In this document: positions 20,087 to 21,491 of the stretch, piece by piece | How the letters are laid out: the number at the start of each line of letters is the position of its first letter | Numbering within the stretch: position 1 is the stretch's first letter | Origin: a virus | UHGV virus genome: UHGV-0111899 | Strand: one strand, 5' to 3' | DNA: 23,450 nucleotides | Made by a program: the position numbers and the translations under genes | The notes under the pieces: model-generated | The model's input: the letters and a program-made list of their open reading frames with translations, nothing else | The model's database searches: none | What the model was told of the DNA's origin: nothing

Positions 20087-20308
20087 ATGGCGGACATCAT
20101 TGATTCAGCATCAGAAATTGAAGAATTACAGCGCAATACAGCAATAAAAATGCGTCGTCTGAACTACCAGACTATATCCGCCACTCATTGTTGTGAGTGT
20201 GGCGATCCCATAGATGAACGAAGACGTCTGGTCGTTCAGGGTTGTCGGACTTGTGCAAGTTGCCAAGAGGATCTGGAGCTTATCAGTAAACAGAGAGGTT
20301 CGAAGTGA
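20087..20308 (+). CDS. TraR/DksA-family C4 zinc-finger protein (lambda orf73-like)
   Basis: 73-aa ORF with CCECG...CRTCASC four-cysteine zinc-finger spacing typical of TraR/DksA-like RNA-polymerase-binding proteins. Confidence 0.8.
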   Translation: MADIIDSASEIEELQRNTAIKMRRLNYQTISATHCCECGDPIDERRRLVVQGCRTCASCQEDLELISKQRGSK

Positions 20309-20676
20309 GCGAAATTAACTCTCAGGCACTGCGTGAGGCGGCAGAGCAGGCAATGCATGACGACTGGGGATTTGATGCGGACCTTTTCCATGAGCTGGTA
20401 ACACCATCGATTGTGCTGGCGCTGCTGGATGAACGGGAAAGAAACCAGCAATACATCAAATCCCGCGACCAGGAGAACGAGGATATTGCGCTAACGGTAG
20501 GGAAGCTGCGCGTTGAGCTGGAAGGCAAAGACAGGCGCATTACTGAGGTGACAATGTGGATTAAGCGACTGAGTTCCTCTCTCAAAAACGCCAAACCAGA
20601 CAGCAAGTTGCCGGATGACGCCATGATCTGGCTAAATAATGAAGGACTTACCAGTATAGAGGATATTTTACGATGA
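20305..20676 (+). CDS. Ea22-like protein (N-terminal coiled-coil type)
   Basis: 123-aa acidic, predicted coiled-coil ORF (MSEINSQALREAAEQAMHDDWGFDADLFHELVTPSIVLALLDERERNQQ...) resembling the recalled N-terminus of lambda Ea22 / Ead-family proteins; ATG overlaps the upstream stop. Confidence 0.55.
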   Translation: MSEINSQALREAAEQAMHDDWGFDADLFHELVTPSIVLALLDERERNQQYIKSRDQENEDIALTVGKLRVELEGKDRRITEVTMWIKRLSSSLKNAKPDSKLPDDAMIWLNNEGLTSIEDILR

Positions 20677-21491
20677 GCACTTTTACCAAAGAATGGCTAC
20701 AAAATACGATTACCAGTATTGAGTCAGCACGAGATGAAATGCCATTCGGACTCGACAACGATCAAGCACACATGCTTACAGCATTTAAAATCGCTCTCGC
20801 CTCACTGGAACGCGAACAGATTCGCCACGAGCATGCCAAATGGTCTGACTCCACATTTGGCTGCGTTGGCCCCATTGGTCCACTGAAACACCTCTCAAAA
20901 GAGGCTCTGGAAGCCGCAGCCGAACCAGACGATCTTAGCGAGTGGGCTGATATGCAGTTTCTGTTGTGGGATGCACAGCGCCGTGCCGGCATCAGCGATG
21001 CTGAAATTACCGCTGCTATGGAAGATAAATTGAAGATCAACATGGAGCGCCAGTGGCCTGAGCCAAAAGATGGTGAGCCTCGCTTGCACATTAAAGAACC
21101 CGGCAACTCTCCGGTAATTCCGGATGGTTTATCCACGGTATGCGCTGAGGCTTATCAGGTTGTAGGAGTTATGGCAGATGCGCTTGGTGTATTCGGTGAT
21201 GCAGCAGTACAGAAAGTTCTGGATAACCTGTCACAGCAAAAACTTGTTCACAGAGATGTGCTGCCGTTCTCGCTTCCGGTAACTCCGGATAGTTGGATAA
21301 GCTGTAGTGAGCGAATGCCGAAAGAAACGGGTGACATTATTGTTGTTTCGGATGGCATTGTAATGTCCGGGATTTCTTATTCTCGTCGTGACGGGTTCTA
21401 TATAGCCGCATTGGAGTACGACGACGATGAGCCAATTGGCGGTGTAACCCACTGGATGCCGCTACCGGAGCCGCCGCAGGAGGTGAAGTGA
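20673..21491 (+). CDS. DUF550/DUF551-like two-domain protein (N-domain putative dATP/dGTP pyrophosphohydrolase-like)
   Basis: 272-aa ORF whose ATG overlaps the upstream stop (ATGA); domain assignment is from recollection of prophage proteins with similar N- and C-terminal (…WISCSERMPKETGDIIVV…THWMPLPEPP) segments, not from a search. Confidence 0.55.
   Translation: MSTFTKEWLQNTITSIESARDEMPFGLDNDQAHMLTAFKIALASLEREQIRHEHAKWSDSTFGCVGPIGPLKHLSKEALEAAAEPDDLSEWADMQFLLWDAQRRAGISDAEITAAMEDKLKINMERQWPEPKDGEPRLHIKEPGNSPVIPDGLSTVCAEAYQVVGVMADALGVFGDAAVQKVLDNLSQQKLVHRDVLPFSLPVTPDSWISCSERMPKETGDIIVVSDGIVMSGISYSRRDGFYIAALEYDDDEPIGGVTHWMPLPEPPQEVK

Follow-up and report, generated by a model that had tools for sequence, protein, structure and literature searches.

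A gene pair between orf73 and xis in a lambda-like prophage

We analyzed a 23,450-nucleotide stretch of DNA from the virus genome UHGV-0111899 (hereafter the window, meaning the whole of that stretch) and focus on two overlapping genes, referred to here as gene 1 and gene 2, which encode a short Ea22-type protein and a longer EaA-type protein (Table 1). Read in the pL direction, the window represents a lambda-like prophage that is collinear with lambda and 434. Its plus-strand order is bet, exo, orf60a (DUF1317), orf63 (DUF1382), an open reading frame (ORF) resembling orf61, orf73, genes 1 and 2, xis, and int. An initial annotation, made from the sequence letters, had proposed two ORFs at 20305 to 21491 in the early-left region, and we recovered both on the plus strand with exactly these coordinates. 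The regional assignment also holds, since the pair lies in the pL-transcribed exo-xis interval between flanks that are 97 to 98% identical to and collinear with those of lambda. The pair was correctly placed between a TraR-like gene (orf73) and xis, but it is not adjacent to xis because a DUF4752 gene and a 55-amino-acid ORF intervene. We consider it almost certain that genes 1 and 2 encode an Ea22-family protein and a P22 EaA-type protein, respectively; RefSeq/NCBI already lists the exact sequences with these family names, and the annotation as such is ordinary and known.

Genes 1 and 2 meet in an ATGA overlap (acgATGAgc), as the initial annotation had described, but the junction of the orf73 stop with the gene 1 start is GTGA, base for base the same as at lambda orf73/ea22. 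Downstream, the gene 2 stop overlaps the following start (TGATG at 21489 to 21493). Shine-Dalgarno-like sequences stand 7 nucleotides ahead of the gene 1 GTG (agagagg) and 10 nucleotides ahead of the gene 2 ATG (agagga), and an AGGAGG within the last codons of gene 2 (21478 to 21483) is the Shine-Dalgarno sequence of the DUF4752 gene, 7 nucleotides before that start. A scan for an internal promoter of the pair found no plus-strand sigma-70-like site in 19300 to 22400, and Rfam returned no RNA in the gene 1/gene 2 region. Taken with Pfam scores well above curated cutoffs, the pattern of codon changes relative to P22 eaa, and public gene calls, all given below, these ribosome-binding sites indicate that genes 1 and 2 are real genes and not chance ORFs.

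Table 1. Features of the gene pair, the domains of gene 2, the replacement cassette, and neighboring genes, in window coordinates
Feature	Position	Strand	Basis or remarks
Gene 1	20305-20676	+	Short Ea22/EaD-family protein, 123 aa, GTG start
Gene 2	20673-21491	+	EaA-family protein, 272 aa, ATG start
Gene 2 leader helix	residues 1-45	+	Runs on into the core (AlphaFold2)
Gene 2 core, MazZ-like all-alpha NTP pyrophosphohydrolase	20808-21098, residues 46-142	+	PF04447; Foldseek 7ody
Gene 2 linker and insert	21099-21287, residues 143-205	+	'NSPVIPDG' motif, ~50-aa module, second 'LPVTPDSW' linker; phrog_28884 on 153-203
Gene 2 DUF551 small beta domain	21288-21488, residues 206-272	+	PF04448
Replacement cassette (Ea22 alternative tail, EaA-like gene, DUF4752 gene)	20524-21850	+	blastn vs lambda
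Two terminator-like hairpins at right cassette edge	21856-21877, 21888-21907	+	Consensus scan; predicted
orf73, TraR-DksA-type zinc-finger gene	20087-20308	+	PF01258, E 8.4e-9; phrog_54
DUF4752 gene	21491-21768	+	PF15944, E 6.8e-28 on second ORF; phrog_667 matches both pieces
55-aa ORF (orf55)	21927-22094	+	Between the DUF4752 gene and xis
xis	22134-22352	+	PF07825, E 7.6e-41

Gene 1 is a short chimeric Ea22

The first gene had been described as Ea22-like, and profile and pairwise searches agree. The protein matches PF13935 (Ead_Ea22; E = 3.6e-22, 79.9 bits against a curated cutoff of 27, residues 2 to 79). In BLASTP it shares 89% identity with lambda Ea22 over residues 1 to 81, being near-identical up to about residue 73 and divergent from there on; identity to P22 EaD is 52% over 86 amino acids. 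An alignment of relatives resolves a conserved leader (residues 1 to 14), a segment variable in length and sequence (15 to 36), an invariant coil (37 to 73), and a tail (74 to 123) that is conserved within its subfamily. The AlphaFold2 (AF2) model, with a predicted local distance difference test score (pLDDT) of 78.7, contains helices at residues 6 to 16 and 25 to 31 separated by a hairpin, followed by a single helix spanning 34 to 94 (pLDDT 82 to 93); the tail is modeled as two short, less confident helices within 104 to 122.

Lambda Ea22 has a dimeric alpha/beta domain at its C terminus, solved by nuclear magnetic resonance (PMC10834534). No counterpart was found in gene 1, whose alignment to Ea22 ends at residue 81. 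A phmmer search of PDB sequences gave two weak matches (E = 0.12 and 0.16), both to unrelated proteins. These comparisons show that gene 1 is a chimera in which the N terminus of lambda Ea22 and the beginning of its coiled coil (residues 1 to 73) are joined to an alternative helical tail of 49 amino acids. It shares with lambda Ea22 the exo-xis position, the GTGA overlap with orf73, and a long predicted helix, but the distal coiled coil and the alpha/beta domain are replaced by the tail. Because the C-terminal domain is variable in the Ead/Ea22 family (PMC10834534), gene 1 is a member of that family even though it falls outside the lambda subtype. The Ea22 proteins of Shiga toxin (Stx) phages are likewise mosaic, with unrelated C-terminal domains of which one is DUF551 (PMC10834534), and gene 1 resembles these variants in principle but is shorter. 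The exact 123-amino-acid sequence is deposited in NCBI as 'ead/Ea22-like family protein' (P0269), and a 98% identical variant occurs on at least 1000 contigs. Lambda and Stx-phage Ea22 favor lysogeny (PMC7093339, PMC10834534), and by homology with them the gene 1 product is probably an oligomeric coiled-coil protein that biases development in the same direction.

Gene 2 is an EaA-type protein with an additional leader and insert

Both Pfam families that the initial annotation had named for the second gene were matched in a profile search: PF04447 (dATP/dGTP pyrophosphohydrolase, formerly DUF550; E = 5.2e-42, 142.5 bits against a cutoff of 23, residues 50 to 145, covering profile positions 1 to 96 of 97) and PF04448 (DUF551; E = 4.8e-14, 53.4 bits against a cutoff of 22, residues 207 to 269, profile positions 1 to 68 of 68). 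The lack of profile support that was to refute the initial annotation was thus not observed. The pyrophosphohydrolase-annotated domain had been placed at the N terminus; it is present but central, following a 45-residue leader helix. Gene 2 is 49% identical to P22 EaA over 245 amino acids (E = 3e-66) and about 80% identical in the core. The P22 gene order, ead-eai-eaa-eag-eac-xis-int, mirrors that of the window. In both phages a DUF550 core precedes DUF551 in a protein encoded after an EaD/Ea22 gene, in the early-left operon upstream of xis-int. The two proteins differ in the N-terminal leader, the interdomain insert, and the middle of DUF551, and in P22 eai lies between ead and eaa. Further 'EaA/Eaa-like' proteins with these two domains belong to lambdoid, P22-like, and T1-like phages. 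The insert of about 50 amino acids is modeled as helical at low confidence (pLDDT below 50 for residues 146 to 162, 169 to 172, and 186 to 203). A close relative from the Br_167 prophage lacks it, so that NSPVIPDG joins DUF551 directly (NSPVTPDGWISCSE), whereas in the window the module separates NSPVIPDG from the second linker copy (LPVTPDSWISCSERMP).

The family is large, with 5353 clusters at 50% identity matching gene 2 at E<=1e-3 and 547 at E<=1e-30. PF04447 was present in 49 of 50 diverse relatives and DUF550 together with DUF551 in 36, and none carried any other Pfam domain. Stand-alone DUF550 cores, annotated as 'EaA-like', occur in virulent Klebsiella phages. DNA related to some part of the interval from the TraR-like gene to the DUF4752 gene (20087 to 21800) was found in 4163 of 5426 complete Escherichia coli genomes. 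The exact 272-amino-acid protein was located in no fewer than 51 blocks from public assemblies, one of them a Joint Genome Institute (JGI) metagenome contig that matches the window at 100% identity over 19001 to 23450.

The core of gene 2 carries a predicted pyrophosphohydrolase site

The AF2 model of gene 2 is confident for the helices between residues 6 and 125, with core pLDDT values of about 80 to 90. The top PDB match in Foldseek was 7ody, the MazZ of cyanophage S-2L (probability 1.00, template modeling score [TM] 0.70, root mean square deviation [rmsd] 3.2 Å, 29% identity). Across chains A to C of this structure the target TM was 0.64 to 0.70 and the rmsd 3.2 to 3.4 Å, consistent with a MazG/HisE-type helical fold. 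Matches of the model in BFVD were MazZ-domain and DUF551 phage proteins.

The roles of the ligand, pocket, and transition-state residues of S-2L MazZ have been assigned by crystallography (PMC8342488), and a profile alignment transfers most of them to gene 2. The predicted metal ligands E77, E80, E90, and D93 correspond to MazZ E35, E38, E50, and D53. Likewise, K119, N123, R126, and W128 correspond to MazZ K76, N80, R83, and W85, D100 to D60, which contacts guanine N2, and R137 and H139 to R94 and H95. The predicted pocket comprises W57, K72/H73, F96, L97, D100, K119, N123, R126, W128, R137, and H139; it differs at base-side positions, where MazZ I16 and N20 are replaced by S58 and F62. Among 150 sequences, each representing a 50%-identity cluster, the ligand and pocket positions are unchanged in 137 to 143, the remainder being gaps in fragments and at most three substitutions per position. 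The four metal ligands are unchanged in 140 to 142; the rest are gaps, except that E90 and D93 are each replaced by Arg once. Between the core and P22 eaa, 86 of 291 nucleotides (30%) differ; the codon changes are synonymous in 40 cases and nonsynonymous in 19, a pattern of purifying selection. Given the MazZ fold, the aligned ligands and pocket, their conservation across cluster representatives, and this synonymous excess, gene 2 likely encodes an active metal-dependent purine (deoxy)nucleoside triphosphate [(d)NTP] pyrophosphohydrolase.

Activity is documented only for two distant enzymes of Z-genome phages, which frame this prediction. S-2L MazZ hydrolyzes (d)GTP, and the DUF5664-DUF550 protein of Acinetobacter phage SH-Ab 15497 hydrolyzes dGTP and dATP to monophosphates in the 2-aminoadenine (Z) pathway (PMC12884076, PMC8342488); the enzymatic name of PF04447 stems from the latter protein. 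Gene 2 shares with S-2L MazZ the metal ligands, most of the pocket, the Asp that reads guanine N2, and the C-terminal Arg and His contributed by the partner chain. MazZ, however, is a single domain of 105 amino acids encoded next to purZ and datZ, to which gene 2 adds the leader, the insert, and DUF551. The SH-Ab 15497 enzyme and gene 2 have in common PF04447 and the motifs K-x3-[KH]-E-x2-E, E-x2-D, D, and K-x3-N-x2-R-x-W, whereas DUF5664 (PF18909), an N-terminal domain missing from gene 2, and the Z-cluster context belong to the SH-Ab 15497 enzyme. By analogy with MazZ, D100 points to (d)GTP, and perhaps also dATP, as a substrate.

DUF551 is a conserved frame around an exchangeable middle

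The C-terminal DUF551 domain of gene 2 retains a conserved frame (WISCSERMP ... THWMPLPEPPQEVK) that recurs in relatives as a 'WI[SP][CV]SERMP' start and a 'THWMPLP[EA][PA]PQEVK' end, whereas the middle, about 42 amino acids in gene 2, is swapped between relatives and variable in both length and sequence. When 137 relatives were clustered at 50% identity, the DUF550 cores formed a single cluster and the DUF551 middles formed 27. Among pairs with cores at least 95% identical, 40% have middles less than 30% identical and 59% have middles more than 80% identical, and this bimodality argues for cassette exchange rather than gradual divergence. Some relatives carry wholly different modules between the same linkers. 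The AF2 model places the strands of the domain within residues 220 to 263 (pLDDT about 70 to 87), and structural matches in BFVD reach TM values of 0.66 to 0.74. In the literature DUF551 appears in YfdS and in the Ea22 V2 variant alone (PMC4776307, PMC10834534). Both YfdS of E. coli CPS-53 and the C-terminal domain of Stx-phage Ea22 V2 share the PF04448 signature with gene 2, marking the domain as portable among prophage early proteins, but there it is fused to other N-terminal parts. We infer that DUF551 is an adaptor or partner-binding module and not part of the catalytic unit.

Evidence against a MazZ-like enzyme and alternative activities

Several observations weigh against an active EaA-type purine (d)NTP pyrophosphohydrolase. 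A tblastn comparison of the SH-Ab 15497 enzyme with gene 2 gave no match. In hhalign the two were paired with a probability of 89.7%, in an alignment that is offset by a few residues around E-x2-E and was read by eye against the MazZ profile alignment; against PF04447, the SH-Ab 15497 protein itself reaches 33 bits and gene 2 reaches 142. Sequence similarity between gene 2 and 7ody is also marginal (phmmer E = 0.56, hmmsearch E = 0.056), and the link to MazZ therefore rests on the fold search and the focused profile alignment. MazZ E34 is a Lys (K76) in gene 2; E34 is reported to be the one ligand that also varies among MazZ-1 homologues (PMC8342488). We found no functional study of EaA or DUF550 proteins of temperate enterobacterial phages in the literature, and substrate specificity is not readable from sequence. 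A PDB search with DUF551 was nonsignificant, with weak matches to the small beta-barrels 7xl7, 6if4, and 3cpx (probability 0.57 or lower).

The physiological rationale of the characterized enzymes also does not carry over. With SH-Ab 15497 queries, tblastn found no PurZ, DatZ, or DpoZ homologue in the window, which is the part of the genome that the search covered, the remaining phage genome lying outside it (best E = 0.27). As the phage is moreover lambda-like, the known role of MazZ in Z-genome phages, where it feeds PurZ and keeps out dATP, cannot apply here. Depletion of dGTP or dATP would hurt the phage's own replication, and bulk depletion is not obviously beneficial.

That cost would be avoided by a house-cleaning enzyme, one that hydrolyzes noncanonical or damaged purine dNTPs (8-oxo-dGTP, 2-OH-dATP, dITP, dXTP) and so protects phage DNA synthesis when DNA damage or oxidative stress triggers prophage induction. 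In its fold and catalytic residues gene 2 agrees with the MazG/all-alpha NTP pyrophosphohydrolase superfamily, and many cellular members of this superfamily are sanitizing enzymes. Exo-xis genes have also been linked to H2O2-mediated induction of Stx prophages (PMC4699033, PMC10834534). The assayed DUF550 and MazZ enzymes, however, all act on canonical dGTP, dATP, or GTP (PMC12884076, PMC8342488), and the guanine-contacting residues of the MazZ pocket (D60 and the I56/L57 region) are kept in gene 2. We consider a sanitizing function unlikely.

The retained guanine-reading Asp would equally suit a hydrolase of (p)ppGpp or of another guanine signal nucleotide, acting against the stringent response or host defense and possibly in cooperation with Orf73, a ppGpp-independent regulator of RNA polymerase. 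There is a precedent in Atd1, a MazG-like protein of a Pectobacterium phage that hydrolyzes ppGpp but not ribonucleoside triphosphates and blunts abortive infection based on Toll/interleukin-1 receptor (TIR) domains (bioRxiv 10.1101/2022.06.09.495361). Gene 2 is near the TraR homologue, with orf73 two genes upstream, and a swapped DUF551 middle would fit an arms-race interface. We nevertheless regard an alarmone hydrolase as improbable. At E<=0.1 the Pfam matches of gene 2 are PF04447, PF04448, and two subthreshold unrelated families, with no match to the canonical MazG family, and Bacillus MazG (5ie9) is a poor fold match (probability 0.12). The adjacency to a TraR gene is not conserved either: P22 eaa has none nearby, and in three other prophages described below gene 2 follows an ant/arc module. 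Nor is there any defense-related signal from PADLOC, which was run on the six ORFs from 19707 to 22094 and returned zero matches, or from other sources; NCBIfam yielded nothing informative for genes 1 and 2.

A mobile cassette with a breakpoint inside ea22

Against lambda, the window is 96.9% identical over 17801 to 20523 and 98.2% identical over 21851 to 23450; both segments are collinear, and blastn aligned nothing between them. The intervening cassette of 1327 bp stands in place of 815 bp of lambda that comprise the distal two-thirds of ea22 and ea8.5. Its left breakpoint (20503 to 20523) is inside ea22, in the coiled-coil segment coding for 'GKLRVELE', and its right breakpoint (21851) coincides with two terminator-like hairpins. 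In other prophages, the window sequence from 20503 through int is joined to a P22-type module of antirepressor, Arc, and P63C-domain genes. Because the same cassette is thus attached to a wholly different upstream module, the coil-coding segment is a recurrent recombination site. These alignments show that the cassette was exchanged into a lambda-type ea22 by recombination within the conserved coiled-coil coding segment, and the mobile unit is the cassette, not the Ea22-EaA pair.

Three of these loci (L008, L009, and L010) have an identical gene 2-DUF4752-orf55-xis-int block next to ybhC, on the lambda attB side. Upstream, a P22-type immI-like module (antirepressor, Arc/Mnt-like, P63C-domain) replaces bet-exo-orf73-ea22, and the 170 bp preceding gene 2 are a mere remnant of the sequence coding for the gene 1 tail.

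This distribution bears on the initial annotation's description of the two genes as coupled, which is accurate for the local translational overlap but not as an obligate association, since identical copies of gene 2 occur in other prophages without Ea22-like or TraR-like genes. Proteins that work only together, for example with the coiled-coil protein as a scaffold that tethers or regulates the enzyme, would be in keeping with the ATGA overlap, with the EaD-then-EaA order also seen in P22-like phages, and with junction DNA that is intact in 57 E. coli genomes. Such an obligate module is largely refuted by the distribution of gene 2 and is highly improbable. Several assemblies encode the identical 272-amino-acid protein with neither partner gene, eai separates ead from eaa in P22, lambda has ea22 without any eaA, and the DUF550 core stands alone in the virulent Klebsiella phages.

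We also considered, and rejected on grounds of rarity, a conserved junction cassette made up of the gene 1 tail and the gene 2 leader and recurring between ea genes. A megablast search of 50,697 phage records with the junction DNA (20527 to 20810) gave no match, and the 57 genomes in which this DNA is intact are out of 5426 E. coli genomes, marking it as a particular allele and not a general linker. The linkers that do recur are the 'GKLRVELE' segment of the coil and the two ends of DUF551, 'NSPVIPDGW' and 'PQEVK'.

The DUF4752 gene at the end of the cassette is split into ORFs of 36 and 68 amino acids by a 1-nucleotide deletion in a T run at about position 21556. Relative to a related prophage, in which the intact gene encodes 92 amino acids, TGGTTTTATATG has become TGG-TTTATATG. 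The gene is intact (92 amino acids) in L008 to L010, and the JGI metagenome contig identical to the window has the same frameshift; the split may mark a pseudogene or stem from a sequencing error common to both. At the corresponding position in E. coli 2013C-4465 and in O55:H7 strains (L004, 3719 to 4986), the Ea22-like gene and the DUF550 gene are annotated as pseudogenes or fragments, indicating that the cassette decays in some prophages.

Such decay raises the question of whether gene 2 is itself mosaic debris, or whether its DUF550 core is limited to nucleotide binding or a structural role. Besides the frameshifted neighbor and the pseudogene annotations, the dispensability of the region in lambda (PMC10834534) would be compatible with a noncatalytic or decaying gene. 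Across about 140 diverged cluster representatives, however, the catalytic residues show little or no variation, the comparison with P22 eaa shows purifying selection, and both ORFs are intact with ribosome-binding sites. We therefore give this explanation very little credence.

Neighboring features

The upstream neighbor Orf73 is identical to lambda Orf73 at 71 of 73 residues and keeps the N-terminal DxxDxA motif and the six cysteines discussed in PMC9239242, where Orf73 is described as an inhibitor of rRNA promoters. Upstream of orf73, the ORF at 19707 to 19988 extends mechanically to 93 amino acids; the protein in related RefSeq prophages has 71 and lambda orf61 has 61, and translation probably begins at an internal ATG. 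Terminator-like sites number 13 in 19300 to 22400, compared with 2.4 expected from shuffled sequences. On the plus strand, such hairpins bracket the block from orf73 to the DUF4752 gene, with one at 20009 to 20027 and the two at the right cassette edge, and a bidirectional terminator-like hairpin lies just ahead of xis (22084 to 22103). The Rfam matches in the window are elsewhere: the lambda cIII thermoregulator element at 17225 to 17283 on the plus strand (RF01804; 88.5 bits), and tRNA-Thr (tgt) and tRNA-Asn (gtt) at 6749 to 6824 and 6830 to 6904 on the minus strand, in the rightward (late or Q-proximal) part.

Possible roles of the EaA-type protein

On balance we favor the combined explanation that an early accessory cassette here supplies a chimeric Ea22 and an EaA-type purine (d)NTP pyrophosphohydrolase. 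The early pL expression of exo-xis genes and their roles are documented (PMC10834534, PMC7093339, PMC9239242). By extension, Orf73, the Ea22-like protein, the EaA-like protein, and the DUF4752 protein would be made one after another on the N-antiterminated pL transcript, within minutes after the phage infects or is induced. The gene 2 core may then form dimers or tetramers with an active site built from two chains, as in S-2L MazZ, in which E77, E80, E90, and D93 would hold three divalent metal ions, and DUF551 may act as an adaptor that can be exchanged. At an early stage of infection or induction, the predicted enzyme would cleave a purine (d)NTP to (d)NMP and pyrophosphate.

What this activity might accomplish can be stated with less assurance. 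The likeliest physiological effect would be that the purine (d)NTP pool is transiently lowered or rebalanced, as an accessory, nonessential host-takeover function, and the effect would run in the same direction as that of the neighboring Orf73, which shuts down rRNA promoters. We hold such pool modulation by gene 2 to be possible but rather doubtful, and the initial annotation's proposals that the enzyme alters nucleotide pools or counters nucleotide-based defenses are speculation. A bolder proposal is that EaA-type proteins are very widespread early effectors in which an invariant MazZ-like enzyme is steered by its DUF551 cassette, which would bind a variable partner from the host or a rival phage. 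The enzyme would then act locally, at the replisome, at RNA polymerase, or on a guanine-nucleotide defense signal, and not on the bulk pool. We rate this proposal a long shot; if true, it would give a function to the EaA gene family.

The 'dATP/dGTP pyrophosphohydrolase' label carried by these proteins was transferred from distant enzymes of Z-genome phages. In gene 2 it is backed by a predicted site that is intact and strictly conserved, so that the label is a prediction open to testing and not a mere name. EaA-type proteins occur in ordinary, A-containing temperate phages, to which the Z-pathway rationale does not extend, and in a region, exo-xis, that affects the lysis-lysogeny decision and the induction of Stx prophages. 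The frame-and-middle anatomy of DUF551 and the coiled-coil breakpoint within ea22 show how this region is reshuffled.

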